64,000 bases of DNA from a virus (IMGVR_UViG_3300037587_000923:18046-82045); one strand, 5' to 3'. Positions 38,268 to 56,168 are shown, counted from the stretch's first letter. Numbers and translations are program-made. The notes: a model not told the origin generated them from the sequence alone.

Positions 38268-39403
38268 TGGAAAAAAATAAGGGTCTACAGCTAGTAGATA
38301 AAAAAGAAATGGCAGGGGGTGGTGGCTTTTCTCTTGCTCCAAGTAATCTAGGGGAGGCAATGGAGTTCGCCAAGATGATGGCTAATACAGACATGGTCCC
38401 TCGAGACTACGCTGGAAAACCTGCCAACATAATGATAGCTGTCCAGATGGGAGCCGAGATCGGCCTTAAACCGATGCAAAGCTTACAGAACATATCTGTG
38501 ATCAACGGCAGGCCTAGCGTGTGGGGAGACACCGCAATTGCATTAGTCAGGGTTCACCCTGACTGTGAGTCCATCAATGAATACCTTCTCGATAAAAATG
38601 GTAATAAGACCACTGGTACCGATTACGACACTGCAGTTTGTGTAGTGAAGAGGGCTGGCCAAGACGAAGAGATTAGGACTTTCAGCCTCGCTGACGCCAA
38701 AAAAGCCAGACTTATTGGTAAAACAGGGCCATGGTCTACTCACGAGAAGAGGATGTTGCAGCTGCGAGCTAGAGGTTTTGCTCTCCGTGATGTTTTTCCT
38801 GATGCATTAAAAGGCCTAGCGATTGCAGAGGAAGCTCAAGACTTACCACCTCGAGACATCACTCCTGCCAGGGAAGAAGTATTGACTCCCGAGTTCGATG
38901 TGCCCGTCATAGACACCGGCCGTAGTGTTATGGTTGAGGAGGTTGCCAATGAAGAAGTAGTTGATGCCGCCACTGGAGAGATCACTGAGGGGTCAGAGCA
39001 GAAGTCTGAGTCTGCCAAGATCGAGGATGACGACGCTCTCGATGCAACCGTTACCGGCATGATCGATCGTATTGAGAATATCGGTAATAAGTTCGAGGGG
39101 GATAACTGGCTGACCAAACATAGCTCTGAAATCAACAAGCTTCCGGAAGATGCCAAGGAAGTTGTTATGAACAACTACAAGGGGAAAATGGAAGATCTGG
39201 CATCGGAGGGTGTGGCCAAGGAAGAGGGATCAAAAGGTGACGAAGACTCCCTTGTTCTTGACTACATAAAGAAGCTGGAAAAACCTAAGAGCCTGGAGGA
39301 GCTTGACGCTATATTTGACGAGGCCCAGAATAAAATAAAGACCGGCGCAAAGGTTGTCGCCCTTCGTAAGGTTAGAGACAAGAAGGCACAGGATTTTAAG
39401 TAA
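38267..39403 (+). CDS. RecT-like single-strand annealing protein
   Basis: G.EIGL.PMQSLQNI.VINGRPS.WGD; W......ML..RA..FALRD.FPD.L.G. Confidence 0.85.
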   Translation: MEKNKGLQLVDKKEMAGGGGFSLAPSNLGEAMEFAKMMANTDMVPRDYAGKPANIMIAVQMGAEIGLKPMQSLQNISVINGRPSVWGDTAIALVRVHPDCESINEYLLDKNGNKTTGTDYDTAVCVVKRAGQDEEIRTFSLADAKKARLIGKTGPWSTHEKRMLQLRARGFALRDVFPDALKGLAIAEEAQDLPPRDITPAREEVLTPEFDVPVIDTGRSVMVEEVANEEVVDAATGEITEGSEQKSESAKIEDDDALDATVTGMIDRIENIGNKFEGDNWLTKHSSEINKLPEDAKEVVMNNYKGKMEDLASEGVAKEEGSKGDEDSLVLDYIKKLEKPKSLEELDAIFDEAQNKIKTGAKVVALRKVRDKKAQDFK

Positions 39404-39527
39404 CATTGGCATTGAGGGGCCGCCGGATTGATGGCAACCTCTTTCAAAAACTGAGTGGCGGGGAAAGCCGACTCCTGTAAAAATCAGACAGATGTTTAGG
39501 CGGTCACTCTCGAATAACTGGTTATGA
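39398..39527 (-). repeat. attC-like site A1
   Basis: TAAC..ATTGAGGGGCCGCC / GGCGGTCACTCTCGAAT..GTTA; extra C on the minus-strand left arm. Confidence 0.75.
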
Positions 39528-39543
39528 AACTTGGAGGTAGAAA

Positions 39544-39744
39544 ATGAACACTACAGAGCAACGCATGGCGGCAATATTTAACGAGTGGGCAAAACGTTAT
39601 TCTGAGAACCCTGACGCTTTCGGGCCTATATTTGATGATGAGGGGAAGCCGGTCACCGACTATGGAGTAAGATGCGCACGCTATTTCAAAAAGGTAGCCG
39701 ATGAAATGGACAGCAAGGGGATATTACCCGCACCTGTTTCATAA
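39544..39744 (+). CDS. Cassette gene, hypothetical
   Basis: Bracketed by GTTATGAAAC / GTTTCATAAC (10-bp perfect complement). Confidence 0.7.
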   Translation: MNTTEQRMAAIFNEWAKRYSENPDAFGPIFDDEGKPVTDYGVRCARYFKKVADEMDSKGILPAPVS

Positions 39745-39801
39745 CGCTTGAGGTAAGCGGAACGAGCGTAGCGAGTTTCCCACTTGAGCGAATTGTTATG
39801 T
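39739..39801 (-). repeat. attC-like site A2
   Basis: TAACGCTTGAGGTAAGCGGAA...TTCCCACTTGAGCGAATTGTTA; closely similar to A8. Confidence 0.8.
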
Positions 39802-39822
39802 TGAAACTTTTAACTATAGGAG

Positions 39823-40155
39823 ATGCTGATAATGACACCTGAAATTAATAAAAAATATTTAATTACGACCGATAATTGGTTTTTGGCACCTGATGGGAAT
39901 AGTTATCGCGCAGTATTTGGAACTGTCATAGGAATACAAACAGACGAAAATACATTGGGAGTTAAAACGAATAGAAGCTCGACAAACTGGTATGTTGCTA
40001 TCGGGAATATGTTGATCGCTGGTTGTCAAATACATTATGTAATCCAAGTGGATGAGGTAAGCTTTAACGCACCTAATAGAGAAATAGAGCACGATGGTAA
40101 ATTAACTAAAGAGAGGGAAAGCATAACAAGAATATATAATGCCGATGAAACATAA
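39823..40155 (+). CDS. Cassette gene, phage-type hypothetical
   Basis: TTDNWF.APDG..YRAVFG motif; GTTATGTT / AACATAAC brackets. Confidence 0.7.
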   Translation: MLIMTPEINKKYLITTDNWFLAPDGNSYRAVFGTVIGIQTDENTLGVKTNRSSTNWYVAIGNMLIAGCQIHYVIQVDEVSFNAPNREIEHDGKLTKERESITRIYNADET

Positions 40156-40348
40156 CGATTGAACTAAACTGCGGCGAAAGGAGAATATCATGAAATGGGA
40201 ATGTGGAAATTGTGGACACAAGGTTACTGAAAAAGAAACTGTTGAAGGTGGGAATAAAGAATGGAAATGCCCTAAATGTTCTAATATCAATAAGCATGAA
40301 AAAAAGAAAAGCGCGTTGAGCCGTCAGATTTGAGTGACTGGGTTAGGC
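40150..40348 (-). repeat. attC-like site A3 (loop encodes an ORF)
   Basis: ACTAAACTGCGGC versus minus-strand ACT[C]AAA[T]CTG[A]CGGC. Confidence 0.8.
40190..40333 (+). CDS. 47-aa Zn-ribbon peptide inside the attC loop
   Basis: RBS AAGGAG; MKWECGNCGH...WKCPKCS. Confidence 0.65.
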   Translation: MKWECGNCGHKVTEKETVEGGNKEWKCPKCSNINKHEKKKSALSRQI

Positions 40349-40371
40349 CGCACGAACCTTAGGAGGTAAGT

Positions 40372-40560
40372 TTGGAAAAGCCAGAATATTTAAAAGATGA
40401 ACATTTAAAATATCTAAATGAGCTGAAAGAAACCAAAATGGTACCCATGTTTGGAGCAGCATCTACCTTGAGATTATATTATGATTATCTGACAAAGGAG
40501 CAAGCCAGGAAAATATTAGCCTATTGGATAGACACATTTCAAGAGAGACATGCGGCATAA
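40372..40560 (+). CDS. Cassette gene, hypothetical
   Basis: NMFGA-like motif (PMFGAA..L); GTTAGGCCGCA / TGCGGCATAAC brackets. Confidence 0.65.
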   Translation: MEKPEYLKDEHLKYLNELKETKMVPMFGAASTLRLYYDYLTKEQARKILAYWIDTFQERHAA

Positions 40561-40757
40561 CAATTGAACTGTGCCGCTTGCAAAATTAAAGGAGAAAACC
40601 TATGAGTGGAGTTATAGACTTACCCTGTGGATGCACAATGGATGATTATTCAGGACTAGCACTTTATGTTTGCCAAGCGTGTAGAGAGCGCAAGAAGAGG
40701 CAAGAGACTTCAGAACGCGACAGCGTTTTGCAAGTCGGAACCAGTGATGGGTTAGAC
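40555..40757 (-). repeat. attC-like site A4 (loop contains a gene start)
   Basis: ACTGTGCCGCTTGCAAAA versus minus-strand ACT[G]GTTCCG[A]CTTGCAAAA. Confidence 0.75.
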
Positions 40758-40916
40758 TGCCCCCTTTGTGCGAAGATGGGGCCGAAAGAAGTTTATGAAA
40801 AGTGGGGCTTTGATTATGAAGCAAGATATAAAGACACATGCAAAGCGCATAGACCGCTAATGCTTGAGAGAATGGAAGATGGACTGAACAAGTTGAAAGA
40901 GCTTCTGGCAGACTAA
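40602..40916 (+). CDS. Cassette gene starting inside the attC, Cys-rich
   Basis: RBS AAGGAG in the loop; reads through the arm; GTTAGACTGCC / GGCAGACTAAC brackets. Confidence 0.65.
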   Translation: MSGVIDLPCGCTMDDYSGLALYVCQACRERKKRQETSERDSVLQVGTSDGLDCPLCAKMGPKEVYEKWGFDYEARYKDTCKAHRPLMLERMEDGLNKLKELLAD

Positions 40917-41272
40917 CAAGACAAGCTAAGGGGCTTGAACGAACGCAGTGAGAGAAAGTCCAAGGAGTGAAACGACTGTCTTTGAGCGCCTGGGTTATGT
41001 TTTTTGATATGACAGGGCAAAAAATCGGAGGTTATTATGGACGACATAGCAATAAATGAAGGTCAAAAGATATTTGAAGAAAGATATAAAAAGGGATTTC
41101 CAAAAGTGATATTTGGGGAGACGCACATCTCAATTCCTTGCACTTGCGACGATGGCGGTGGGCCTATTCACTGGGCAACAGTGCAGAACAACATAAGATC
41201 GATAGAAGAACATTTCCGGCATGAGGAGACTTTGCGTGAATTAAGGAAAATGGATAGGGACAAAACATAACG
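40914..41272 (+). repeat. Duplicated unit copy 1 (attC A5 plus 77-aa gene 41037-41270)
   Basis: 359 bp that read identical to 43242-43600. Confidence 0.9.
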
Positions 41273-41355
41273 TTGCCCTTAACCCGCACCTGAGCCAAGT
41301 TCCTATGAAATTGGAGACACCTTTAGGTGTCGGTGGTTCAAGGGCTTGGTTATAA
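41265..41355 (-). repeat. attC-like site A6
   Basis: GCCCTTAACCCGCACCT versus minus-strand GCCCTT[G]AACC[AC]CG[A]CACCT. Confidence 0.8.
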
Positions 41356-41376
41356 AACTTATCTTACGGAGGACTT

Positions 41377-41544
41377 ATGAAAGCTGAAATAAAGAAAGAT
41401 GGATTTATTTGGATAACCGCTGAAGACGCAACAGAGGCATTCGCGCTTAATCATTTAGTGCCAGTTGGTGACAAGGCGGAGGTGTGTAAAGAGTGCAACC
41501 AGGTTAAAATACCCGTTGTTATAGATGCGAGCGTATTAAACTAG
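41377..41544 (+). CDS. Cassette gene, 55 aa
   Basis: RBS GGAGG; GTTATAAAACT / AGTTTTATAAC 11-bp perfect brackets. Confidence 0.65.
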   Translation: MKAEIKKDGFIWITAEDATEAFALNHLVPVGDKAEVCKECNQVKIPVVIDASVLN

Positions 41545-41550
41545 GCAGTT

Positions 41551-41611
41551 TTATAACGAACAAGTTAAAGGGACGCTGGAACAGCGTTCCGCTTTGAACG
41601 CCTGGTTCTGA
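41551..41611 (-). repeat. attC-like site A7
   Basis: GTTAAAGGGACGCTG / CAGCGTTCCGCTTTGAAC; ends in GTTC. Confidence 0.8.
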
Positions 41612-41636
41612 GGCGTGTAACTTAAAAGGAGAAGAC

Positions 41637-41768
41637 ATGAGACTGATAATTTTAACACTTGGAATATGGGCATTGATGCATGTTGGATTTGACTTCGACT
41701 GGATGAGGGTTTTATGGACTATGGGGCTGACTGTTTATGCCGCATGGTATGATTTAATAAAGCCTTAG
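41637..41768 (+). CDS. Cassette gene, 43-aa membrane peptide
   Basis: RBS AAGGAG; GTTCTGAGGC / GCCTTAGAAC compensatory brackets. Confidence 0.6.
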   Translation: MRLIILTLGIWALMHVGFDFDWMRVLWTMGLTVYAAWYDLIKP

Positions 41769-41825
41769 AACGCCTGAGGTAAGCGGAAGCCGGAACGGCT
41801 TTCCGACTTGAGCGATTTGTTAGTT
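41765..41825 (-). repeat. attC-like site A8
   Basis: GAACGCCTGAGGTAAGCGGAAGCC...GGCTTTCCGACTTGAGCGATTTGTTA. Confidence 0.8.
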
Positions 41826-41855
41826 TGGATCTTGACTTTAAGGAGAGGCGACTAA

Positions 41856-42707
41856 ATGGCAAGAATTAAGTATACACAATGTATGGTAAGAGACTGCGAA
41901 AAGCCCCATCTATCTAAAGGCTTCTGTAATAGGCATTATCAGCAAATGTGGAAGCATGGACGCATTCTGCCTGATGCGGTGCCTATTGAAGACTTGGCCG
42001 GAGAGTTATGGGCTGACATTGAAGAGGCTGAAGGGTATCAAGTTAGCAATATGGGGCGTGTTAAGTCTCTTGTGGGCCGTGGCGGGTTAATAAAGCCACA
42101 GATCGAACAAAGGGGGCACATGAATACCCCTAAGAAGCGTGTCTATTTAGACAGGAGGGCAACAAGAGGCTGGGTTAAATTCTTGTATGTTCACCTAGAG
42201 GTAGCCAGGGCCTTTATCCCTAATAAGTTTGACAGCGCCCACACGACCTTTAAAAACGGGGATGCCTTAGACTGCCGTGCTGATAATATCGAATGGTGGT
42301 GGGAGAATCCACCTGTAGATGATGATGGGTTGATTCAGTTTAGAAAGTCGGTTCATTCTGAATTAGGGAAAAAGGTTCTGGCCTTTATTGATGGCAACCA
42401 GTCTGCCCTCGATAGTTTCGTAATGCAAAAGACTGACAAGATGAGGAAAATACTACAGAGTAAATTCAAAGGGGTCTGCGGAGACAATGTAAACGAAGCG
42501 GTGCACGTTGCTTTCAGTGAAGGCATGAGAGACATTAAACGCGGATTGCTTAGGGCAGACACACATATAGAAAACTGGTTCCTTCGGATTGCAGAGAACC
42601 AACTATTGGATGATATTAAAAAGAACAAGCACACTACATCTCAATGGGGCTGCAATGGTAATGGCGACGAGTTCGACAAATTTGATTTAATGGCGGCAAC
42701 AAACTAA
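41856..42707 (+). CDS. Cassette gene: Zn-finger + NUMOD4/degenerate HNH + sigma region-2-like domain
   Basis: C.V.DC.....KG.C.RHY; E.W..I...GYQVSN.GRVKS; VH..VA.AFIPN; NW..RIA.N..LD. Confidence 0.65.
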   Translation: MARIKYTQCMVRDCEKPHLSKGFCNRHYQQMWKHGRILPDAVPIEDLAGELWADIEEAEGYQVSNMGRVKSLVGRGGLIKPQIEQRGHMNTPKKRVYLDRRATRGWVKFLYVHLEVARAFIPNKFDSAHTTFKNGDALDCRADNIEWWWENPPVDDDGLIQFRKSVHSELGKKVLAFIDGNQSALDSFVMQKTDKMRKILQSKFKGVCGDNVNEAVHVAFSEGMRDIKRGLLRADTHIENWFLRIAENQLLDDIKKNKHTTSQWGCNGNGDEFDKFDLMAATN

Positions 42708-42788
42708 CTATGAATTAACCAGTGGCCCGACCAAGCCACACTGAAAACGGACACGCCTCTTGCCATCTGGTTGAATGGCGTGTTATAA
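42702..42788 (-). repeat. attC-like site A9
   Basis: ATTAACCAGTGGC versus minus-strand ATT[C]AACCAG[A]TGGC, the canonical extrahelical pattern. Confidence 0.85.
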
Positions 42789-42812
42789 ATTTTGCATTAG
42801 GAGGGTAATTAG

Positions 42813-43244
42813 ATGAGAGGATATGCGTGTATAGGGTTGGATAACCCCAAGGCGGCAGTTAACGTAGGATCGGCTTTGAGAGCCGCAGGGTGCTATGGGG
42901 CTGCAATGGTGGCTATGACGGGCAACCGGAGCGGAAAGACACCCACTGACACCATGAAGCAGTATCGACATAGGCCGTTGTTGCGCGTTGAAAATTTGAA
43001 AGATGTTATTCCTTATGACTGCGTGCCTGTGGCAGTTGATTTGATAGAGGGAGCTATTCCATTGCCAGAGTATGAACACCCCGAAAGAGCCTTTTATATC
43101 TTCGGGGCTGAAGATGCCACCCTGGGCGAAAGAGTGACATCTTGGTGCAGGGACACTATATATATTCCCACTAACGGTTGCATGAATCTAGCAGCAACGG
43201 TTAATGTGGTGCTATATGACCGGCTTGTTAAGCAAAATTTATAA
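42813..43244 (+). CDS. Cassette gene: SpoU/TrmH-family RNA methyltransferase
   Basis: NPK...NVGSALRAA; IFGAED; IP...CMNLAATVNVVLYDR; 14-bp perfect brackets GTTATAAATTTTGC / GCAAAATTTATAAC. Confidence 0.85.
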   Translation: MRGYACIGLDNPKAAVNVGSALRAAGCYGAAMVAMTGNRSGKTPTDTMKQYRHRPLLRVENLKDVIPYDCVPVAVDLIEGAIPLPEYEHPERAFYIFGAEDATLGERVTSWCRDTIYIPTNGCMNLAATVNVVLYDRLVKQNL

Positions 43245-43600
43245 CAAGACAAGCTAAGGGGCTTGAACGAACGCAGTGAGAGAAAGTCCAAGGAGTGAAA
43301 CGACTGTCTTTGAGCGCCTGGGTTATGTTTTTTGATATGACAGGGCAAAAAATCGGAGGTTATTATGGACGACATAGCAATAAATGAAGGTCAAAAGATA
43401 TTTGAAGAAAGATATAAAAAGGGATTTCCAAAAGTGATATTTGGGGAGACGCACATCTCAATTCCTTGCACTTGCGACGATGGCGGTGGGCCTATTCACT
43501 GGGCAACAGTGCAGAACAACATAAGATCGATAGAAGAACATTTCCGGCATGAGGAGACTTTGCGTGAATTAAGGAAAATGGATAGGGACAAAACATAACG
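43242..43600 (+). repeat. Duplicated unit copy 2 (attC A10 plus 77-aa gene 43365-43598)
   Basis: Reads identical to 40914-41272. Confidence 0.9.
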
Positions 43601-43635
43601 ATTGACTATATGGACATTTAATGTTGGTGTGAATT

Positions 43636-44007
43636 GTGAATAAGTATTATAAGCAAGTAAAATATAGACAGAATCAGAGAGATAAAAAAGAATGTTACCG
43701 TTTAAATTCTACTGATACGATTAGGGAATCTTATTATCAGCCACCTGAATTTAGAGGATTGAGGATATATGGAGATTGTGATCTCGGTTATCTTAGACTT
43801 ATTTACATTTCTCTATGGGAATGTGGACGTTTAGATTCCTATTACATACGCAACGAAAAAGTAGAAAATATTGGTAAGCGTCCAAAATTAAATGATGACA
43901 ATAGCGATTGGTGGATTGACAGTAATGGAAATCGTAAAAAATATGGCAAGGTTAATCTTGATAAGAAAATAAGAGAACTGATGCCGAATATAAGGAGGGC
44001 GGATTGA
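43636..44007 (+). CDS. Hypothetical protein
   Basis: AT-rich ORF coupled to the next gene. Confidence 0.5.
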   Translation: MNKYYKQVKYRQNQRDKKECYRLNSTDTIRESYYQPPEFRGLRIYGDCDLGYLRLIYISLWECGRLDSYYIRNEKVENIGKRPKLNDDNSDWWIDSNGNRKKYGKVNLDKKIRELMPNIRRAD

Positions 44008-44504
44008 TGAATTGCTTCCTAGGTAGGGTATACGACGACAAGCATGCCACTTGCATTTCCTGTATTAGGGCAGGAGAGAAGACTTGTAAGCAGGTCAAGA
44101 AGAAACGTAAGGCCCACGATATTCATACAGTTATGGCTGAAGGCAAGTGGCTTATGTGTACTAAAGACCTCAGAACCCCTAATGACTGGACCAACAAGAT
44201 GTACGGTAAGAAGATTTATAGGGGAGAGAGGTCTGCCTGGGAGAAACAGTTCAGAGGGATAATCCATTTATGGGGTAAGGCGTCAGGTAAGAGGCGCCTT
44301 ACCGTTATACGGTATGTTCCTGACAAGCGGTATCTCATGAAAGATAAGACCAATAGAGAGGGAGCCATGAAGCCTCTTGAGGATGCGCTTGTTAATCAAG
44401 GAGTACTTGTTGACGACAGGGATGAGTTCCTGGAGCGTGCCGACCTCAGGCAAGAGATAGATCCGGCAAGAGTAGGGGTAGCTATCTTAGTGGAGGATAT
44501 TTAG
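44004..44504 (+). CDS. RusA-like Holliday junction resolvase
   Basis: D..N.....K...DAL...GVL.DD motif. Confidence 0.7.
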   Translation: MMNCFLGRVYDDKHATCISCIRAGEKTCKQVKKKRKAHDIHTVMAEGKWLMCTKDLRTPNDWTNKMYGKKIYRGERSAWEKQFRGIIHLWGKASGKRRLTVIRYVPDKRYLMKDKTNREGAMKPLEDALVNQGVLVDDRDEFLERADLRQEIDPARVGVAILVEDI

Positions 44505-44787
44505 GCATGCTGAAAAAAAATTGCCTGGAGATAGTAATATATGACGACAAAGGCAATAGGTGTTGTTTTTCTCTTGACACCCTTTTCATTACTTTGATAG
44601 GGTGCGCTTACATTCCAATTTAACCTTTTGACAGAGGTACGAAGGATCAAATGAAAACCACTTTTAAACATAGAGAAGCCCACTCGAGCCAGAGCAATCT
44701 GGAGCAGGTCCCTTTTGGTCCACCTGTCTGTCAACTCGTGTGGGCTTCTGTGTGTTTAGCCCAATCCCAAAGAAATAAAGGTGTTAT

Positions 44788-45612
44788 ATGAGTAGATCAA
44801 GACGATGTAAGGCCGGGCTGGACTACTTCTCGTTTGATGTTGATTTCTTTGACGACGAGAAAATTGAGTTCGTATCAGCCAGATATGGCTTGAAGGGCGA
44901 GGTAATTTCCATAAGGCTTTTGTGTCGGATTTACCGTAATGGTTATTTTATTAAATGGGGTGATGATGAAAGCTTGCTATTCGCAAAGCGTGTCGGAGAC
45001 GGTGTCACTCAAGAAGATGTTAAGTGTGTTGTTGACGAGCTGTTCAAGAGAGAGTTCTTAAGTAAGTCTTTATTCGATAAATGTGGCATCCTTACATCAG
45101 GCGGAATTCAAAAGAGATATATCCAAGCAACCGAACGTAGGAAAGGTGTGGAGATGATTAAGGATTATATAGCTGTAGACATTACAGATTACGATGTAGA
45201 CATTTTAGAATTAAATGATGACATTTCAAAACAAAGTAAAGTAAAGGAAAGTAAAGTAAAGGAAAGTAAAGAAGACTATAAAATTTCTTTCTCTGAATTC
45301 TGGGAGGTATATCCTAGTCGTAACGGTAAAAAGATAGATAAGCCTACCACTAAAGATAAGTTCTATAAATTAAAACCTTCGGATCTGTCAGACATTATTG
45401 TGGCAGTCCATAACTACAAAGACAGTGAATTAGTTAAACAAGGAATTGGCATTAAAGACCCTCATAGATTTATTAGCAACAAAGACAATAAAGAGTTTTG
45501 GAAAGAATGGATGAAGCCTGAGATTAATAATAGCAAGAAACAAAAGAGCCCATATGAAGCCCAAAACGAAACTAGGGCTTATCATAAACCAATTAAAAAC
45601 AGAGGACTATAA
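44788..45612 (+). CDS. Replication initiator (DUF4373/Lin1244-like N-terminus)
   Basis: GLDYFS.DV.FF.D.KI; LTS.GIQKRY; F.EFW..YP; directly upstream of DnaB. Confidence 0.8.
   Translation: MSRSRRCKAGLDYFSFDVDFFDDEKIEFVSARYGLKGEVISIRLLCRIYRNGYFIKWGDDESLLFAKRVGDGVTQEDVKCVVDELFKREFLSKSLFDKCGILTSGGIQKRYIQATERRKGVEMIKDYIAVDITDYDVDILELNDDISKQSKVKESKVKESKEDYKISFSEFWEVYPSRNGKKIDKPTTKDKFYKLKPSDLSDIIVAVHNYKDSELVKQGIGIKDPHRFISNKDNKEFWKEWMKPEINNSKKQKSPYEAQNETRAYHKPIKNRGL
45174..45272. repeat. Putative replication origin within the initiator gene
   Basis: GACATT at 45178, 45199 and 45220 (21-bp period), followed by purine-rich AAGTAAAGTAAAGGA repeats. Confidence 0.5.
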
Positions 45613-47785: not shown

Positions 47786-47790
47786 GGTCA

Positions 47791-47915
47791 ATATAACATT
47801 GAGTTCAGCAGGACCGGATTGAAAGCAAACACATTGGAAGAGGGAATGAACATGAAAGGCTTTTTGATTAAAATTAAAAACAGTGTTAGGGATCGGCTGC
47901 AACGTGGGGTTATTT
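47791..47915 (-). repeat. attC-like site B1
   Basis: TAACATTGAGTTCAGC / GCTGCAACGTGGGGTTA; minus strand reads GTT[G]CAGC. Confidence 0.65.
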
Positions 47916-48148: not shown

Positions 48149-48185
48149 CCAGACGATGATTCCTTCGGAATATCGCGGGTTATTT
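48143..48185. repeat. Mini attC-like hairpin B2
   Basis: TAACCAGACGATGATTCC-TTC-GGAATATCGCGGGTTA. Confidence 0.55.
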
Positions 48186-48215
48186 GCCGAACACAAATTA
48201 ATAAAGGAGACCAGA

Positions 48216-48611: not shown

Positions 48612-48629
48612 GGGTGACAAGGAGATTCG

Positions 48630-50996
48630 ATGGACTTTCTTAATCACATAAAAGAAGTTGAGTGGATAAGCGCCTCCCAATATGCCAAAAAGTATGAGCT
48701 GGACAAACCCAAACTCACCTATTGGCTCAAGAAGAACTTCATCCATCACCAAAAGAAGGAGATATCCCCCGGCCGGCATGGCTATTTAATCCCAGATATC
48801 AAGCCGCAAGACCATCCCAACTTTTCAAAGAAGGGGCCTGACCCCAGGAAGAACAAAGGGGCACGCAAGCCCTACACCAGGAAAGCCAAGTCCAAGCCCT
48901 CCAAGGAAAGAGACTTCGTTCTTGAGAACAGGAAGAAGATCCTCGAGCCATTTCTGGATAAGTTCCTGGAGAAGGCCGACCCTGGGCAGATGTTCTTCTC
49001 AAGCAAAGAGCTGCAAAAGATTATCGACGTACCTAACTCAGCCCTCTTCTCTAGGTGGAAAGAGTGGGGTCTTCGAAGATATAATGCACCGGCCAAGATG
49101 CAGAGTGGTCCCAACAAAAAAGGGATATCGTATTGCTATGCCAGGATGGAATTGGTTAGGTTTCTCTCTGGTAAGCCTATAGATCCCAAAGAGCATAAAA
49201 GCATCGACATGAAAATGGTTGGTGGTCTGGCCGGGGCGGAGGAGGACATCCTTGACGGATGGTACCACTACGACGAAAAGAAGTGTTATCCAATGAACGG
49301 CCATGGCTTCCTGCAGTGGCTCAAAGATAAAGAGGTCAGGATACAAAGCAAGAGGGCCAAGAAGTGGGTACCGATAAAGCTTTTGGACTTTCAGGAAGAG
49401 TTTATCGTTGAGGCCCTGAAGCAAAAGCCAGACGGAGACTTCTGGTACAATCTGGTTATAGCCAGCTGGGAACGAGGTGAAGGGAAGACCATGGTGATTG
49501 CCCTTATAGCCATCTTCCGGTTCTTCAATATGTTCGGTGAGGTAATCAACCTGGCTAGTGAAAGTAAAGAGCTCGCATCGTTTATTCACTACAACCTGAT
49601 CAAAGGTATAATAAACAACACCCCCGAGCTAAGGAAGACACCTGGCCTTCTCGTTCAAGAGAAAGAGATAACGCTAAATAAAGGACCCGGGGATCCGGTA
49701 TGTATTATGAAAGCGGTACCTACTTCATCAGGGCTCCTGCCAGGCACGACATGTGCCGTATTCACAGAGCTCCATAAGTTTAAGAAAAGAGCATTCTTCA
49801 TCGACTTCTGGTCTTCCACAAGAGCCACACCAAACGCCATGACCCTCGTTGATACAACAGTGGCCCCGAAGGGCCACATAGTCCACACGTTATGGGAGAA
49901 GTATTGTAGCGGCAAGGATCCGCTCCTCTACTTCAATCACAAAGAGGATGATATCCGTAATCCCGAGACAACAGCAGACCAACTCAACAGCTTCAAAGGT
50001 ATTATGCTGAAGAATGAGTATGACCTTTACTTCCGGAATAGGTGGGAGGATGCTGCAGGAGGTCTCTTCTCAATAGAGTCCATAAAGAAAATGGGCTACG
50101 CCGGCATTAAGGTTGGTGGAAAAGATATACTTGGCGCATCGCAGGACCTCGACAAGGCGATCGAGGATCTGGACAAGCTTGACCAGGAGAGGTCCACACT
50201 ACTTAGGGGCGGCATTTCCGCTGGCCCCATCACTGAGGCGATAAAGCAATTAGAGGATAGCCTTATCAAGATGGATGACCTCTACAGCCTTCCGGCAACA
50301 GCGGAAGACTTCGACATGCTACAGAAAATGTTTGGGGTGAGTTTCATGGTTGGTGTTGGCTTGGATAGGTCTAAGATGGTCGGCGCCACCCCCGACAATA
50401 CTGTCTTCTCATGTGTAGCCAGAGGTATGGTAGATGAGAATGTGAGCTATTACTTCCTGCTCGATATGTTCGTAACTACCAAGCCGACCTCTATGTTCCT
50501 GCAAGATAAGATGGTAGAGTGGGAAGGTAAGTATGGCTGGATAGATAAGGTCGCTGCAGAGGAATATCAGTCACATGATTTCCATATGTGGTGTGAAGAC
50601 AACGGGTATGAGTCTGAATTTATATCCGCCACATTCAAGAAGCAGGAAGAATTATTTACTTTGATGTGGAGCGTTGTCGATGCCGGCTTTTTGAAGAGCC
50701 CCTCTGTCCCATACTACAGGGATGCCGAGGGCGAGATAAGGCAAGGCTATACCAACAAGGATGATATCTTCAGGGAAGAGCTGGGCGCCTTTGTTCACGA
50801 CCCCAACAAGAAATTCTTCGGCGCCTTGGAGAAGAGAAAGAAGGCCGCCCCAAAAGATGATACGGTATACTCGAGTGGTTGGGGAATTTACGCATGTCAA
50901 GGCGAGAGCCTTGCTGACATTGGCGCCAGGTCAGGTAACACCGGATGTATACAACTTATTGGCAACGACGACACCATTGGAAACTACGATGACTGA
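48630..50996 (+). CDS. Terminase large subunit with long N-terminal HTH-like extension
   Basis: L.DFQ..FI; RGEGKT Walker A; AVFTELH Walker B variant; GLD; DD.V nuclease motifs. Confidence 0.8.
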   Translation: MDFLNHIKEVEWISASQYAKKYELDKPKLTYWLKKNFIHHQKKEISPGRHGYLIPDIKPQDHPNFSKKGPDPRKNKGARKPYTRKAKSKPSKERDFVLENRKKILEPFLDKFLEKADPGQMFFSSKELQKIIDVPNSALFSRWKEWGLRRYNAPAKMQSGPNKKGISYCYARMELVRFLSGKPIDPKEHKSIDMKMVGGLAGAEEDILDGWYHYDEKKCYPMNGHGFLQWLKDKEVRIQSKRAKKWVPIKLLDFQEEFIVEALKQKPDGDFWYNLVIASWERGEGKTMVIALIAIFRFFNMFGEVINLASESKELASFIHYNLIKGIINNTPELRKTPGLLVQEKEITLNKGPGDPVCIMKAVPTSSGLLPGTTCAVFTELHKFKKRAFFIDFWSSTRATPNAMTLVDTTVAPKGHIVHTLWEKYCSGKDPLLYFNHKEDDIRNPETTADQLNSFKGIMLKNEYDLYFRNRWEDAAGGLFSIESIKKMGYAGIKVGGKDILGASQDLDKAIEDLDKLDQERSTLLRGGISAGPITEAIKQLEDSLIKMDDLYSLPATAEDFDMLQKMFGVSFMVGVGLDRSKMVGATPDNTVFSCVARGMVDENVSYYFLLDMFVTTKPTSMFLQDKMVEWEGKYGWIDKVAAEEYQSHDFHMWCEDNGYESEFISATFKKQEELFTLMWSVVDAGFLKSPSVPYYRDAEGEIRQGYTNKDDIFREELGAFVHDPNKKFFGALEKRKKAAPKDDTVYSSGWGIYACQGESLADIGARSGNTGCIQLIGNDDTIGNYDD

Positions 50997-51036
50997 GCGG
51001 GCTAACATAACAGCTTGAGATAAGAGGAGGACGGCA

Positions 51037-51294
51037 ATGAAAGGGACAGTAATGGTGGATGGTGAGGAGTATGAAATAGTACCGTTAAGTGGGGAAACCC
51101 TCAAGGAGCATTTCGGAAAGTTGCTCGATTTGCCGAGAAGTAATCATTGCGTAGATTTAAGGGAGCCAGTGGTTATCGCGGTTAAAAGAAGTGATGGTGC
51201 TACTGAATATTTACATTGCAGCAGTATCGGGGGAGGATGTAGAAGACATGATGGCAAGGGCAATTACTCATTTATTGTTGGAAAAAGAAGATAA
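51037..51294 (+). CDS. Hypothetical protein
   Basis: RBS GAGGAGG after a TAAC half-site. Confidence 0.55.
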   Translation: MKGTVMVDGEEYEIVPLSGETLKEHFGKLLDLPRSNHCVDLREPVVIAVKRSDGATEYLHCSSIGGGCRRHDGKGNYSFIVGKRR

Positions 51295-51438
51295 AACATT
51301 TTTTGTGCCGTGCAATAGACAAGGGCATATATTCCATGAGCATCAAAAGCAATTTGAAAAGATACCTGAATACCACAGGTGCAAAGTATGTGAAAGACAC
51401 CTGAATAAAATTAAAGACCGTTTGTTATAGAGAAGCAA

Positions 51439-51500
51439 ACATAATGATTAAGCTAAACCGCCGCGCCATTTGCGGTCGGATTTTCAGCGCCTTGTTATGG
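51439..51500 (-). repeat. attC-like site C1 (core AAC mutated to AAT)
   Basis: GCTAAACCGCCGC / GCGGTCGGATTTTCAGC..GTTA. Confidence 0.7.
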
Positions 51501-51528
51501 CGCACTTACCCTAAAGAGAAAGGAAAAA

Positions 51529-51893
51529 GTGATGGAAAAAATAGAAGTAAGTTTAGAACCTTTAGTCAGATTGCTTGGAGCAGTGAGTGGGCCACCACAT
51601 TTAATTAGAGAACTTCAGGCGACAAGAGGCCCGTTGGTTGGCGATGACAATCCGATAAATATTTTGATAGATGAATATAACAAAGTGATTAAAAAGAAAG
51701 GAGGTGATGTAAATTGAGTTATTCATTGAATCACCCTTGTGGGGATTGCACCAAGGCGGATAAGTGTAATGATCGACACTTTATCCAAGGTGGAATCAAC
51801 GGGATACATGACGTATACCCGTCTGAAAAAGGGCATCTCGGTAGTGGCACCGTAACTATTGAATGTTCGCAGCATGAAACAAAAGAAAAGTAG
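51529..51893 (+). CDS. Two-gene cassette cargo (51529-51717 and 51714-51893)
   Basis: GTTATGGCGCA / TGCGCCATAAC 11-bp perfect brackets. Confidence 0.6.
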
Positions 51894-51924
51894 TAATTTG
51901 GCGCGGCCTTGTAATGAGGCTGCG

Positions 51925-52048
51925 CCATAACGCTATTATCAGCGGCCGCATTTAGAAAGGAAACTTATGGACAAGAAAACGACACCAGAAAGCAACACAG
52001 ATCAATTAAGCACCGTGGTTAGCGGTCGGTTGCATAAATTGGTTATGA
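51925..52048 (-). repeat. attC-like site C2 (loop contains a gene start)
   Basis: TATCAGCGGCCGC versus minus-strand TAT[G]CAACCG[A]CCGC. Confidence 0.75.
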
Positions 52049-52263
52049 GACCAGGCCCCGGATGGCATCACTTAGGCGGCGCAGTATGGCAACATGATAA
52101 TGGATCTAAAATACATGTTGGTGGCTTGATGGTATACCCCCATAACGGGGAAATAATAAGGCACTGGGAGCAGCTTGAAATAGTGAATAAGCTTATCAAA
52201 ATTAACGGTGGGAATAGAAAGCGTGGATTAATGGCATGGGCCATGAACTTAGCGGTGTCATAA
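51967..52263 (+). CDS. Cassette gene starting in the attC loop
   Basis: Reads through the arm (SGRLHKLVM); GTTATGAGACC / GGTGTCATAAC brackets. Confidence 0.65.
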   Translation: MDKKTTPESNTDQLSTVVSGRLHKLVMRPGPGWHHLGGAVWQHDNGSKIHVGGLMVYPHNGEIIRHWEQLEIVNKLIKINGGNRKRGLMAWAMNLAVS

Positions 52264-52306
52264 CACTTAGCTCTCCGAAGGAGGAGCGTTGAGGTTATGT
52301 TGCTCA
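52260..52306 (-). repeat. Mini-attC repeat copy 1
   Basis: 47 bp identical to 55751-55797. Confidence 0.85.
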
Positions 52307-52464
52307 CGGAATTAACAGAGAGGAAGCATGGAAGACGAGATAGAGGACGGGGTAACAATAAAGACCAACGTGCCAGTCAAGGAGTTTCTTGTCGATGCTT
52401 TAATAAATTTGGGTATGCTCTTGCTGGGAATAGTACTAAGTAAAATATTTTAAGGAGGTTGTGA

Positions 52465-52764
52465 GTGACTGAATTTGATTTCGATATAAATGAGGAGTTG
52501 GAGGAGATCAAGGTAAGCTCCCTCCTTCGTAGCGTTACAGAGAAAGGCAGGGCCCTTCTCTTGAAGAGATTACTGGGGCCCCTTCTGACGCCTGGCATAT
52601 TAACTCCCAAGGAAGCGGCATTCTTCTTCCTAAACGCCGCGCTTGATAAAAGCCCCAAGATGATAGCTAAGAGCTTTAAGTGTGACCTGTCCGGGGTCTA
52701 CTCTATCCTCAGCAAGGCCGAGAATAAGATAAGGGAACATAGGAAAAACAATGAACGGATATAG
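52465..52764 (+). CDS. Sigma region-4/LuxR-like HTH protein
   Basis: LTPKE...IA........V...L.KA..KIR. Confidence 0.6.
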   Translation: MTEFDFDINEELEEIKVSSLLRSVTEKGRALLLKRLLGPLLTPGILTPKEAAFFFLNAALDKSPKMIAKSFKCDLSGVYSILSKAENKIREHRKNNERI

Positions 52765-53383
52765 AGCAAGGATCGATATGATCGGAAAGATATTCGGGGC
52801 ATTAACAGTGATAGGGTTCAGCTATAAAGATAAATTCAATAAAGCTCGCTGGAACTGCCGGTATGAATGTGGTTCCGGGAAAATTGCTGAAGGCTCAAAA
52901 TTACGCAAAGGTGAAATAAAGTCTTGTGGTTGTCTTACGGTAAAATTAATAAGCAAAGGCTTGACCACTCATGGCATGTCAAAAAGCAAAATATATAAAA
53001 TTTGGTCAAGCATGAAAAATAGATGCAATAACCAAAGAGATCCAGCTTATGTTTGGTATGGAGGTAGAGGCATAAAGATCTGTGCCCGCTGGATGAAGTT
53101 TGAGAACTTCCTTATTGATATGGGAGAGCGCCCAGATGGCATGTCTATAGAACGCAAAGACAACAATGGCAACTACGAGCCTGAAAATTGCAAGTGGGCG
53201 ACAAGAGAAGAGCAGGGAAGAAACACAAGCCGTAATGTTTTTATCACATTCAATGGCGAAACACTCCACACATCAGAGTTTGCTAGGAAAGCAGGGATGA
53301 GCCCAGCCTGCTCGCACAGTAGATTAAGGTATGGTTGGCCCATAGAAAGGGCTCTCAATGAGCCGGTAAGAAAACGGCAATAA
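52751..53383 (+). CDS. HNH homing endonuclease
   Basis: KSCGC; W..MK.RC; YGGRGI; SIERKDNNGNYEPENC.WAT..EQ.RN. Confidence 0.85.
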   Translation: MNGYRARIDMIGKIFGALTVIGFSYKDKFNKARWNCRYECGSGKIAEGSKLRKGEIKSCGCLTVKLISKGLTTHGMSKSKIYKIWSSMKNRCNNQRDPAYVWYGGRGIKICARWMKFENFLIDMGERPDGMSIERKDNNGNYEPENCKWATREEQGRNTSRNVFITFNGETLHTSEFARKAGMSPACSHSRLRYGWPIERALNEPVRKRQ

Positions 53384-53551
53384 GGAGGTAAAGTTGAACG
53401 GGAAGAAATCGAAGAAAATTAATGATCTAGCAAGGAGCCTACTCGCGGAGGTAGCTGCCAAGGATATATCAGAAGAAGAGAGGACCCTTGTGTTGAGTGA
53501 GATACGAAAGAAACTAAAGCGAGACTATAAGGCTGGGAGATTGGTGTTTAA

Positions 53552-53830
53552 ATGAAAGACATTGTAATAATAGAGGGCCTCAGGAAAGAAACCTTTCTCT
53601 ACAAAGACGCTATCTCTGAAGCGATAAAGAAGTTGGGGGAGAGTCACCCGGTCGCATCTAAACTTGGAAGGGTTCTCAAGCTGGCCAAGTATCAGCCTAT
53701 TCCTTGTAAGAGATGCGGGCGCACCCTAAGGAACCCCAAGGCCATACAGAGAGGCATGGGTCCCAGGTGCTACGAGATACATATTGAAGAGTCTCAGAGT
53801 GATATATCTTTCAAGAAGGAGACCGTATGA
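53552..53830 (+). CDS. DUF6011-like zinc-finger protein
   Basis: CKRCGR.L.NP..I.RG.GP.C. Confidence 0.7.
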   Translation: MKDIVIIEGLRKETFLYKDAISEAIKKLGESHPVASKLGRVLKLAKYQPIPCKRCGRTLRNPKAIQRGMGPRCYEIHIEESQSDISFKKETV

Positions 53831-54096
53831 GTAAGCGCGAAAAGAGACTTGGACTCCTCTATGAGGATGATATCAAGTATTCGAAAAGTGAAATCGCCGA
53901 GATGTGGTTTCACTACAGGGTGGCCAAGCAGTATGCCTGCATGGGAGACGTGTGTGAACGCATAGCTTCCTTTGCTTTAACCGAGCAGGAATTCACCCAG
54001 ATGGATTATAAAGAGAGCGTGCCCTCAAACAGGTCTCCTTACTGGATAGAGACCATTGAAGTGCCAAGGGGCTTCGCAGAGAGGGAGATTTATTGA
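53827..54096 (+). CDS. Hypothetical protein
   Basis: Coupled ORF. Confidence 0.5.
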   Translation: MSKREKRLGLLYEDDIKYSKSEIAEMWFHYRVAKQYACMGDVCERIASFALTEQEFTQMDYKESVPSNRSPYWIETIEVPRGFAEREIY

Positions 54097-54407
54097 TGAT
54101 AGGTTTTCCTAAAGAGAAGACGTTTAGGTCAGAGGAGTATAAGGATTATATCCGGTCGCTCCCTTGTTGTAATCCTAATTGCCCCAATCATGGCCGCTTA
54201 CCTAGCGAGGCTCATCATACTGAAAAATCCGGGACTGGCTGTAAAGGATCTGACCTTAGCTGTATTCCTCTCTGTTGTCATTGCCATGTGCCTGGCGTTC
54301 ACACCATGGGTCACATCACGTTTCAGCAGCGCAACAATGTGGACTTCAACAAAGTGCAAATCAAGTGTTTGTCTGGCTTTATAGAGAAGGAGTTGATTAA
54401 TGATTAA
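54093..54407 (+). CDS. DUF968/HNH-like nuclease
   Basis: R.E.Y..YIR.LPC...EAHH...G...K.SD...IPLC..CH. Confidence 0.75.
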   Translation: MMIGFPKEKTFRSEEYKDYIRSLPCCNPNCPNHGRLPSEAHHTEKSGTGCKGSDLSCIPLCCHCHVPGVHTMGHITFQQRNNVDFNKVQIKCLSGFIEKELIND

Positions 54408-54765
54408 GGATGTAACCCCGGTAGTATTCTTAGTTGATAATAAAAAACACGCCATAACCCTTAATTCGTTTGAGCTTGTATATAAGAACTCTCCCATGGA
54501 GCGCACCGAGATAACGGGAGAGATATCGTTTATGGCCGTAGACCACCAACAGAAAATACTAATATCCAAGCCCATGCTAGTTATTCACCTAGGGACCTCA
54601 GTGCTAACGGCTGTCATTAAGGAATACGCTATTCTCCACAACAGCTTGATGAATTCTGGTATGACATCAGCTGCCACCTCATCAGAGTGTAGAGTAGAGT
54701 ATGAAGTTATAGACGAAGAAGAAAGAGACCCTTTCATCGCAGCAGTGGAGGAGGCCGTCTCGTGA
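54400..54765 (+). CDS. Hypothetical protein (C-terminal FIAAVEEAVS)
   Basis: Coupled ORF. Confidence 0.55.
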   Translation: MIKDVTPVVFLVDNKKHAITLNSFELVYKNSPMERTEITGEISFMAVDHQQKILISKPMLVIHLGTSVLTAVIKEYAILHNSLMNSGMTSAATSSECRVEYEVIDEEERDPFIAAVEEAVS

Positions 54766-55052
54766 CATTGGAGCTTTTTAAAATACCAGAGCATGTCAAG
54801 GCTCGGCAAGCCAACCCCAACCCTATGGTGAGGAAGGGCGGAATCCTCAAAGGATATAAGTGTGGTAAATGTGAGCATCTCCTAGTCACCGAAAGCCCGG
54901 CAGGTAAGAGATTTTTCAAGTGTCGCCATAGGGGCGTTACTAGCGGAGCAGCGACAGACCACAGAAAGGGATGGGATGCCTGTGTATTGTATTCCGAGGA
55001 AGGCGAACTCCCTTTCGTCACAGAAGTCAGGAGGGCCAGTGCCAGCCACTAA
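54762..55052 (+). CDS. Zn-finger phage protein
   Basis: CGKC.H...KC......ATDHR..W.AC. Confidence 0.65.
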   Translation: MTLELFKIPEHVKARQANPNPMVRKGGILKGYKCGKCEHLLVTESPAGKRFFKCRHRGVTSGAATDHRKGWDACVLYSEEGELPFVTEVRRASASH

Positions 55053-55293
55053 ATCTAATTACGGCAAGAAGGTCGAAAGTCTCGATGACCTCCATAAGCT
55101 AGTCCAGGCGAGGAGGGCCGTGATCTGTCCCGGGAACAACGGCGCCATAGTACCAAATACAAACGTGGCAGCAGCGTGGGTCTTTAACTTAAACGGAGGC
55201 TCGTTATATAGAGTATTTAAAGCCGGCCTCTATACCTACGAGAAGGTCGATAAGTTTATAAAGGCAGTCGAGGAGGCTGTTGAGTCAACATAA
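54976..55293 (+). CDS. Hypothetical protein (C-terminal FIKAVEEAVEST); stop codon forms the cluster D entry site
   Basis: ORF track; true start probably the downstream GTG. Confidence 0.55.
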   Translation: MPVYCIPRKANSLSSQKSGGPVPATKSNYGKKVESLDDLHKLVQARRAVICPGNNGAIVPNTNVAAAWVFNLNGGSLYRVFKAGLYTYEKVDKFIKAVEEAVEST

Positions 55294-55498
55294 CATGGGA
55301 ATTCAGGGGCTTTTGCCGACAGGAGGAGATGGAAAGATGGATAAGTGTGAAAATAAAAAATGCCCAGACAATGATGACTGGTGCAGTAAAGGATGCAGAA
55401 GTATAAGCATGAGCATGTCGATAGGCCATTGCCCAGATTACCTTACAACTAAAAAAGATCCATCGGCAGAAAGTCCAGCCTGCAATGTGGGGTTATAA
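55288..55498 (-). repeat. attC-like site D1 (loop encodes a 53-aa Cys-rich ORF, 55337-55498)
   Basis: ATTCAGGGGCTTTTGCCGA / TCGGCAGAAAGTCCAGCCTGCAAT. Confidence 0.75.
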
Positions 55499-55501
55499 AT
55501 T

Positions 55502-55747
55502 ATGTGTGATTGGAATAACACGGTAGTTTTGGAAACTGCAAGCGGAAAGAAAGTGGACGTTGATGGCTGTATAGCACCCCTTGTAAGCGCCTTAAATGCC
55601 GCTGGCATAGAAACGATAGCTTGCTGCTGTGGACACGGAAAACGCCCCGGCAATATAGCATTAAAAGACAAGAGAGAATTAATTATTGCACCAGACTACA
55701 AAACAGGGAGAGAAATTGACAGGGCGTTTCCCCCTATAAACGATTAA
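55502..55747 (+). CDS. Cassette gene, conserved-looking hypothetical
   Basis: VD.CIAPLV.ALN.AGI.T.ACCCGHG; GTTATAAATTA / TAATTTATAAC brackets. Confidence 0.7.
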   Translation: MCDWNNTVVLETASGKKVDVDGCIAPLVSALNAAGIETIACCCGHGKRPGNIALKDKRELIIAPDYKTGREIDRAFPPIND

Positions 55748-55750
55748 TTT

Positions 55751-55797
55751 ATAACACTTAGCTCTCCGAAGGAGGAGCGTTGAGGTTATGTTGCTCA
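55751..55797 (-). repeat. Mini-attC repeat copy 2
   Basis: Identical to 52260-52306; partial third copy at 56111-56129. Confidence 0.85.
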
Positions 55798-55907
55798 ACT
55801 TAAGATAGGGGCATGAGGCCCAGAGGAGGCAACCAAACTCAAACAATACCGTGTTGGCGGTCTGTTTGAACGCTTGGTTGGGCAGCATTTAATGAGAGGG
55901 GTAAGCG

Positions 55908-56078
55908 ATGAAAAGAGTAGAGTATAAGTACGACATTGACCAGAAAGTAAAAACACCATTTGGAGAGGAGGGTATTGTTTCGATGCTTGGCTTTGATGAA
56001 GCTGGCAATCAGTATCATGTGAAGACTGCCAATGACAGCCAGTGGTTCAAGGAAAAACAACTCACCGAAACAGATTGA
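55908..56078 (+). CDS. Cassette gene, 56 aa
   Basis: GTTGGGCAGC / GCCGCCCAAC brackets; preceded by a half attC (minus strand CCCAACCAAGCGTTCAAACAGACCGCC). Confidence 0.6.
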   Translation: MKRVEYKYDIDQKVKTPFGEEGIVSMLGFDEAGNQYHVKTANDSQWFKEKQLTETD

Positions 56079-56168
56079 TGCATTCTGGGCGGTGGCTAAG
56101 GCTGCCGCCCAACACTTAGCTCTTCGAAGCAATATCGCCCACAAACTTTAGCAACCAGGAGGAAGAGG

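Follow-up and report, generated by a model that had tools for sequence, protein, structure and literature searches.

A probable attC cassette cluster with its genes on the site-folding strand in the early operon of an uncultured phage

Introduction

In integrons, the strand chosen by the integrase orients promoterless cassette genes toward the Pc promoter. Here we describe an array of attC sites and small genes in the virus IMGVR_UViG_3300037587_000923, in which the genes lie on the strand that corresponds to the bottom strand of the sites. The record (IMG/VR) is linear, 82,045 bases long and about 72% complete according to CheckV. We analysed its bases 18046-82045, a stretch of 64,000 nucleotides hereafter called the window. 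It occurs in two metagenome runs from marine sediment, of which one is probably the source. Positions refer to the window unless given as contig positions.

Results

Structure of the cassette array

Structural genes occupy the minus strand at 6-36 kb, and a plus-strand early region extends from 36 kb on. The cassette cluster lies in its early recombination and replication operon, between the RecT-family gene (38267-39403) and the DnaB gene (45612). Between the RecT-family gene and about 43.6 kb there are eleven small open reading frames (ORFs), all on the plus strand, with imperfect TAAC...GTTA hairpins intervening (39398-43600). The scores below are those of two covariance models described in the next section, one built from bacterial attC sites (the bacterial model, given first) and one from viral sites (the viral model).

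The first attC site (39398-39527, 130 nt; 19.3 bits, E 0.0078; 27.9 bits, E 6.6e-5; plus strand only) overlaps the TAA stop of the RecT-family gene with the AAC of its R' box, and is followed by a gene for 66 aa (39544-39744) with a Shine-Dalgarno sequence before the ATG and a weak match to phrog_32159 (E 8.8e-5). This gene ends in TAAC, where we find the second site (39739-39801, 63 nt; 39.6 bits, E 1.4e-8; 42.3 bits), which resembles the attC of aadA1 read as bottom strand. The next gene (39823-40155, 110 aa; phrog_22562, E 1.5e-23) also ends in TAAC and leads to two long sites. The loop of the first of these (40150-40348, 199 nt; 23.6 bits, E 4.6e-4; 27.6 bits, E 8.3e-5) contains a Shine-Dalgarno sequence and an ORF for a zinc-ribbon protein of 47 aa (40190-40333; Zn_ribbon matches below cut-off), the last codons of which lie in the 3' arm. 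A TAAC-ending gene for 62 aa, with a Shine-Dalgarno sequence and no family match (40372-40560), separates it from the second long site (40555-40757, 203 nt; 30.6 bits, E 5e-6; 28 bits, E 6.3e-5), whose loop contains a Shine-Dalgarno sequence and the start of another TAAC-ending gene without a family match (40602-40916, 104 aa), the 3' arm lying within that ORF.

The following block (40914-41272), made up of a hairpin (40914-40999) and a gene for 77 aa (41037-41270), is the first copy of a unit found again, with 100% identity, at 43242-43600. Behind it, the site at 41265-41355 (91 nt; 18.7 bits, E 0.011; 22.8 bits, E 0.0016) precedes a gene for 55 aa (41377-41544) that stops at TAG, with the next TAAC 10 nt downstream, and the site at 41551-41611 (61 nt; 33.1 bits, E 9.3e-7; 39.6 bits) precedes a gene for 43 aa (41637-41768) whose TAG stop is followed at once by AAC; both genes have Shine-Dalgarno sequences. 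The top-scoring site comes next (41765-41825, 61 nt; 50.7 bits, E 9.4e-12; 52.2 bits), and its unpaired T and G fall at the positions they have in the consensus. It is followed by a homing-endonuclease-like HNH/NUMOD4 gene of 283 aa (41856-42707; NUMOD4, E 4.9e-8; phrog_959 HNH endonuclease, E 2.8e-16), the eighth site (42702-42788, 87 nt; 29.5 bits, E 9.8e-6; 36.6 bits), a gene for a SpoU-family methyltransferase of 143 aa (42813-43244; PF00588, E 1.4e-14) and the second copy of the duplicated unit, the endonuclease-like and methyltransferase genes both ending in TAAC. Two supported sites lie apart from the array on the same strand: a solitary one in which AAT replaces AAC (51439-51500; 33.2 bits, E 8.8e-7; 34.9 bits) and one outside the window in which AGC replaces AAC (contig 15455-15518; bacterial model, E <= 0.011).

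All ten cassette ORFs are preceded by a Shine-Dalgarno sequence, and three have family matches on the plus strand in Pfam or PHROG (phrog_22562, HNH/NUMOD4 and SpoU). Stops of the TAAC type are enriched: nine of the 15 crude ORF calls that terminate at 38000-43700 have one, compared with 10 of 131 in the rest of the record (Fisher p 4.7e-6). Promoter-like and terminator-like sites occur at chance level (nine terminators against 6.6 +/- 2.9 in shuffles), with no sign of promoters for individual cassettes; one promoter-like site lies at the head of the early region (35770-35798).

Identity and strand of the attC sites

A covariance model built from five sites of the phage, read on the plus strand (84% of cells paired, seven of 19 pairs changed on both sides), was searched against 62 of 80 loci with IntI1 or its relatives, with intI set on plus and 18 short loci left out. 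Every match fell on the intI-sense strand, that is, 58 of 58 at E <= 1 and 48 of 48 at E <= 0.01, and this strand is antisense to the cassette genes of those bacterial loci. On plasmid R100 the model matched 13475-13534 on plus (52.5 bits, E 7e-11), with aadA1 on minus. Being too sequence-specific, it missed the long-looped sites. The bacterial model was made from those 48 bacterial sites only, in bottom-strand reading, and was searched unfiltered against the entire record, both strands included. It gave 20 matches at E <= 10, among which all ten with E <= 0.011 are on plus and only two are on minus (E 8.3 and 9.1). The viral model, from 85 viral sites, gave 13 matches at E < 0.1, all of them on plus. 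Altogether, nine attC sites lie in the window (eight at 39398-42788 and the one at 51439-51500) and one outside it, none of them on the minus strand.

The preliminary description of this DNA, made from the sequence alone, had proposed that attC sites on the minus strand accompany genes on the plus strand, had named the strand of covariance-model hits among its checks, and had taken hits on the plus strand as a refutation, a wording that applies to a top-strand model. Plus-strand matches of a bottom-strand model are the same as minus-strand matches of a top-strand model, and both bottom-strand models match plus here while R100 and the Tetrasphaera phage TJE1 match antisense to their genes, so the inversion was borne out. 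In TJE1, whose genes are on plus, the bacterial model scores 38.7, 33.5 and 32.7 bits on minus against 15.3, 14.9 and 10.8 on plus. The model thus discriminates between strands, TJE1 being canonical and the present phage reversed.

The fold leads to the same strand. AAC (R') paired with GTT (R'') is present in eight of the nine window sites that both models support, the site at 51439 having AAT. Sites of the attC type are imperfect hairpins with an unpaired central spacer, an L box and a variable terminal loop, and the loops of the sites matched by the bacterial model measure from 3 to about 150 nt. It had also been claimed that in nearly every site the extra bases lie in the right arm of the plus strand, which holds for 9-10 of 12 sites parsed by hand; when AAC and GTT are constrained to pair, unpaired bases are more numerous in the 3' arm in nine of 11, a comparison that gives the net arm excess without separating the central spacer. 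The extrahelical bases of the plus strand are opposite the AAC, and the T and G align with the unpaired positions of the model. By hand, the plus strand at 42702-42788 reads ...ATT-AACCAG-TGGC ... GCCA[T]CTGGTT[G]AAT-GGCGT-GTTA, with the extras in the 3' arm of the sense strand. The aadA1 attC of R100 reads, in gene sense, TAAC-AATTC-GTT[C]AAGCCG[A]CGCCGC ... GCGGCG-CGGCTT-AAC-TCAAGC-GTTAG, with both extras in the 5' arm and at equal spacing. In the passages on site structure of Nivina et al. (2016, PMC5027507), the cleaved AAC belongs to the 5' R' box of the bottom strand, is cut between A and C, and has the extrahelical bases on the other arm. By this rule, the plus strand of the phage is the bottom-strand form.

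The hairpins of the phage are thus attC sites by sequence and fold, and the coding strand carries their bottom-strand-like form, with AAC in the 5' arm and unpaired T and G on the opposite arm. The canonical layout, an ORF on the top strand with attC downstream, is not what we find; the ORFs are on the bottom-strand-like strand and attC is upstream. A cluster of attC sites lacking an integron integrase (CALIN) is defined in IntegronFinder as two or more attC close together without a nearby integron integrase, and here eight supported sites lie within 3.4 kb (39398-42788), with no IntI in the record. The hairpins, with their interrupted arms, escaped a plain repeat search. No Rfam match in the window reached the gathering thresholds; Rfam may have no attC family. 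No match of the bacterial model was obtained in Pseudoalteromonas phage H101, the model covering class-1-like sites only.

The attC span had been drawn more widely before, from 39398 to 56113; the sites at 39398-42788 and 51439-51500 stand, and four sites at 52-56 kb have no model support. The three minus-strand strings quoted as attC-like are exact reverse complements of 42765-42788, 41805-41820 and 55856-55880, and the models recognise two of the sites concerned (42702-42788 and 41765-41825). The third, the hairpin at 55827-55883, is unsupported, with a match of the bacterial model at E 6 only, for a longer 55793-55883, and none of the viral model.

Marginal further candidates are a hairpin at the head of the early region (35822-35879, plus; bacterial model E 0.054, viral model E 0.0034), a long one at 51925-52048 (plus; viral model 19.4 bits, E 0.013; bacterial model none), which begins at TAAC and extends into ORF 51967-52263, and one at 47791-47915. 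Two mutually identical mini-hairpins (52258-52300 and 55749-55791) are unsupported as attC, with viral-model matches on plus (E 6.9) and minus (E 7.3) that favour neither strand and none of the bacterial model. In the same places, a 46-nt exact repeat with a short hairpin (TAAC...GTTATG; 52261-52306 and 55752-55797) brackets a 3.5-kb block of overlapping phage genes and has no attC model support, which is true also of its partial copy near 56108, earlier taken as part of the array. At the divergent junction of structural and early genes, a perfect 8-bp hairpin, GAAGGCGG...CCGCCTTC (35818-35864), overlaps the marginal match there.

The mobile unit and its junctions

The two copies of the duplicated unit, 40914-41272 and 43242-43600, are identical over 359 bases. 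The copied block starts at the T of TAAC and ends one base past the next TAAC, at a G; it contains the upstream hairpin and the gene for 77 aa, and the upstream genes and downstream sequences flanking it differ between the copies. One unit was therefore copied as C-hairpin-Shine-Dalgarno-gene-TAA, as expected from the earlier proposal that the mobile unit is attC plus the downstream gene. A block made of a site and the gene downstream of it is what a plus-strand crossover at the 5' AA|C would give, and it does not fit one at the 3' GTT, which would have copied a gene with its downstream site. Read on the minus strand, the block is an ordinary cassette, G|TTA...attC...G, with an antisense ORF whose stop makes up the first bases, TTA. 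The TAA that ends each gene is, in reverse, the TTA of the G|TTA in the R' box, so that each cassette carries a complete ORF with its stop.

The crossover had been said to overlap stop codons at 13 junctions, which is more than we count: 11 ORF calls at 38267-55293 end in TAAC, and an attC-like or hairpin site follows in ten. An all-against-all blastn comparison of arrays showed common attC sites (85-98% identical, about 90 nt) without common cargo, the exceptions being one contig pair and the window's own duplicate; further unit boundaries could not be mapped because arrays share attC and no cargo. In the Logan contigs we found no cassette-sized joints, contigs breaking at repeats. The lone joint, from 40588 to 40700, has a depth of 3.4, 27 letters on its shorter side and no TAAC at its position, and was given no weight. 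Matches of contigs from the second run stop exactly at 43241|43242 and 41768|41769 (left AAC) and at 40993 (right GTT). These breakpoints agree with attC sites common to different cargos and do not distinguish the unit.

Reversed arrays in other viral loci

A survey of phage metagenomes for attC antisense to the flanking ORFs had been suggested. We seeded ours with a 16-mer from the 3' arm of this phage's sites, which matched at least 116 viral contigs, many of them expected by chance, and scanned 80 fetched loci with the bacterial model. This gave 104 sites at E <= 0.01 in 27 loci, often in arrays of 5 to 10, and in these 27 IMG/VR loci the genes are on the bottom-strand-like side. When the longest ORF between neighbouring sites was compared with the strand of the matches, the viral loci gave 32 cases on the same strand, one on the opposite strand and 42 ambiguous ones; the present phage gave four, none and three, and the bacterial intI loci none, 19 and two. 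The bacterial figures come from 35 of 48 rows, the remaining 13 being lone matches in their locus.

We also counted the unique sites with TAAC in the R' box at which an ORF ends exactly at that TAA. For ORFs of at least 30 aa these are 52 of 84 viral sites, three of 28 bacterial sites and six of seven in this phage; for at least 50 aa, 48 of 84, none of 28 and again six of seven. For the 48 same-strand viral ORFs, matches were obtained to 16 families in Pfam and 41 in PHROG, which include N6_N4 and Dam methylases, helix-turn-helix regulators, Ros/MucR, DUF551 and RNase H. The longest opposite-strand ORFs of these intervals, 44 in number, gave no Pfam or PHROG match, which settles the gene strand in the viral arrays. 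The mirror-image layout is thus found in many other uncultured phages and is not private to this one.

The 85 viral sites, aligned by fitting them to the model, have 96.4% of cells paired, against 31-41% in slid controls, and compensatory changes in 15 of 19 pairs, with the three AAC/GTT pairs present in 85, 84 and 85 sites. The genes next to the arrays are typical of phages (serine integrase, helicases, DnaB and a RecT-like annealing protein). None of 28 array-bearing viral records, of which four reach a completeness of 90% or more, has an IntI above the family cut-off; one viral fragment has a 33.5-bit IntI match below it. A search of viral_contigs with the RecT-family protein found two distant loci only, and no close relatives for array comparison. 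A family of attC sites of about 90 nt, 85-98% identical, recurs with differing cargo in viral contigs L097, L102, L114, L119, L121, L122, L124, L140, L146, L150, L155 and L165. In this it is like the uniform attC of sedentary chromosomal integrons and, judged by site similarity, points to a host clade or integrase that these phages may share.

Other features of the record

Besides the genes already named, the early region encodes, on the plus strand, a PD-(D/E)XK nuclease (36870), a Lin1244-like protein (44788), TnpB (56821-57972) and Dam (62237). Just before the replication genes, a 24-nt inverted repeat (44665-44758; 88% complementary, 46 nt apart) surrounds ORF 44651-44791. Inside the Lin1244-like gene, next to DnaB, there are tandem repeats rich in AAAGT/AAAGG (45228-45277; three overlapping 25-nt copies), at which contigs from both sequencing runs break; they may be an iteron-type origin or a variable repeat. 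The TnpB gene (383 aa, IS605 OrfB/Cas12f-like) is followed by 466 nt without an ORF (56821-58438 in all), which could encode a guide RNA for TnpB. An ORF of 274 aa lies before the window (contig 12663-13487).

One tyrosine recombinase is encoded in the record, an Xer-like protein of 333 aa, just before the window (contig 16848-17849). Ten homologues were found in a large protein collection, and no relatives in viral_contigs. Right after it come three consecutive paralogous zinc-ribbon proteins of 145, 112 and 124 aa (CxxC...CxxC; contig 17834-18045 and window 1-940).

Discussion

In this work, we describe a stretch of phage DNA that is probably an integrase-less attC cassette cluster, a CALIN, with a gene polarity that mirrors that of bacterial integrons. 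Its sites resemble the aadA1 attC of R100 in fold, in the AAC/GTT boxes, in the unpaired spacer of 5-6 nt and in the unpaired T and G six pairs apart. In R100, however, the gene-sense strand is the top strand and attC comes after the gene, whereas in the phage the gene-sense strand has the bottom-strand form and attC comes before the gene.

CALINs in phages and their recombination by IntI1 are already known. According to the parts of Qi et al. (2023, PMC9892861) that deal with virulent phages, IntI1 recombined five of six tested attC sites, those of TJE1 included, and the arrays are similar to ours in lacking IntI and in having DNA methyltransferases among their cargo. In TJE1, the array of that paper compared here, the bottom-strand matches are opposite the genes and the stops fall inside attC, whereas in the present phage they are on the gene strand and the R' box supplies the stop. 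The same parts of that paper, its supplementary tables (17 phage CALINs) aside, contain no mention of reversed polarity. Chromosomal integrons also have single reverse-oriented cassettes, for example toxin-antitoxin cassettes with their own promoters, in which, as here, the ORF runs antisense to the top strand of attC. Such cassettes are exceptions in canonical arrays, whereas every cassette with a supported attC is reversed in the present one. An architecture of this kind had been called unfamiliar in the preliminary description, and we found no account of reversed phage cassettes in open PMC and bioRxiv full text, a search with subscription journals and the supplements of PMC9892861 outside its scope.

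We infer that these sites recombine. Since the sole recombinase of the record is not IntI and no Y1 transposase was found in it, a host integron integrase acting in trans would be the most likely agent. Such an integrase could use the folded single-stranded plus strand and cut TAA|C between A and C; units would be excised by recombination between attC sites and inserted again at a different attC, or wherever a G|WT site occurs. TAA stops with a C behind them would provide a G|TTA site on the other strand, where insertion would break no gene of a packed operon. The choice of landing site would then set the polarity; only cargo on the folding strand could be read by the phage operon and be kept by selection. 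Expression by read-through from that operon is plausible, a promoter-like site being present at the head of the region (35770-35798). The sections of Loot et al. (10.1101/2022.09.11.507474) on attG insertion report that IntI inserts cassettes at G|WT sites of the genome outside integrons, in either orientation. On the other strand, TAA|C belongs to this class of sites; those insertions concern canonical cassettes in E. coli chromosomes, whereas stop codons as landing sites in a phage operon are our own extrapolation.

Several points weigh against this interpretation. The bacterial sites that trained the bacterial model were chosen by the model from the phage, which makes the two models partly dependent on each other, whereas how those sites are oriented to intI and aadA1 owes nothing to the phage. 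Four of the sites listed earlier at 52-56 kb fail in the models. The viral survey samples one attC sequence family, not phages at large. Read in the opposite sense, 19 of 89 viral TAAC sites likewise close an ORF of 50 aa or more; shadow ORFs are frequent, so that counting ORF ends is not decisive by itself and the argument is carried by the family matches. In the duplicated unit, the hairpin (40911-41000) is unrecognised by the bacterial model and reaches only E 5.3 with the viral one, so that the only unit with proof of copying has the weakest site. No integron integrase was found in the record, which is about 72% complete, and neither a recombination event nor a junction or an excised circle was seen in these data.

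It is unlikely, in our opinion, that the sites are relics or structures repurposed in RNA or DNA for processing, attenuation or translational coupling, which no longer recombine. Some observations would fit this explanation: every site is just ahead of a Shine-Dalgarno sequence, AAC is replaced by AAT in one site and by AGC in another, the Logan contigs have no cassette-sized joints and, in plain minimum free energy folds of both strands, which were noisy, plus folds slightly better than minus in nine of 12 sites through G-T wobble pairs. Against it stand the AAC/GTT boxes, unchanged in 84-85 of 85 related viral sites, the compensatory changes in 15 of 19 pairs, the canonical spacing of the unpaired T and G, and the exact duplicate, which indicates a recent copying event; terminator-like sites are at chance level. 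Still less do we expect the hairpins to be ends or relics of single-strand transposition of the IS200/IS605 type, an explanation tied to the TnpB gene downstream of the region, to which we give almost no credence. Elements of this family have subterminal hairpins and a short target sequence, but a Y1 transposase was not found in the record, the sites match models made of integron attC only, down to E 9e-12, and the copied unit carries unrelated cargo and not a transposon.

The phage's own tyrosine recombinase might move the cassettes, as part of a divergent phage integron with a solo attC 1.4 kb upstream, and we regard this as improbable. It is the only such enzyme of the record, its best NCBIfam match is the XerA/integron-integrase model NF040815 (55.8 bits), it touches the integron-integrase model TIGR02249 (27 bits), and the attC at contig 15455-15518, with a gene of its own, lies upstream of the recombinase on the same strand, reproducing the geometry of bottom-strand site and intI in bacterial loci. 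Both scores, however, are far under the cut-offs (220 and 265 bits, respectively), and the alignment with IntI1 is confined to the N-terminal 190 residues, at 24% identity. Between the lysine and HxxR there are about 60 residues, some 45 fewer than the approximately 106 of IntI1, which indicates that the IntI-specific extra domain is absent. Its nearest and only solved relative is XerA (4a8e), with no IntI entry matched. Moreover, the main array is 21 kb away from the recombinase gene, and none of five array-bearing viral records tested, one of them 100% complete, has any tyrosine recombinase.

If the phage array is a CALIN of reversed polarity, phages may keep a mirror-image pool of cassettes, a broader idea that we put forward tentatively and hold to be possible rather than probable. 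Its members would have the same attC fold and presumably the same kind of host integrase as bacterial cassettes, with cargo on the folding strand and the stop in the crossover box. Cassettes of the phage operon would be silent in bacterial integrons and vice versa, the two pools sharing recombination machinery without sharing expression, and transcription of the early operon might expose the sites, the folding strand being the non-template one.

For annotation, phage arrays of this reversed layout will be mis-annotated by tools that call cassette genes according to the polarity of attC. Early phage genes, such as methyltransferases, regulators and homing-endonuclease-like genes, may be swapped by the integron machinery of the host. 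Stops of the form TAA|C, as safe landing sites in packed operons, would give a concrete reason for the polarity of the phage cassettes, and mirror-image phage arrays bear on the question of where cassettes originate.

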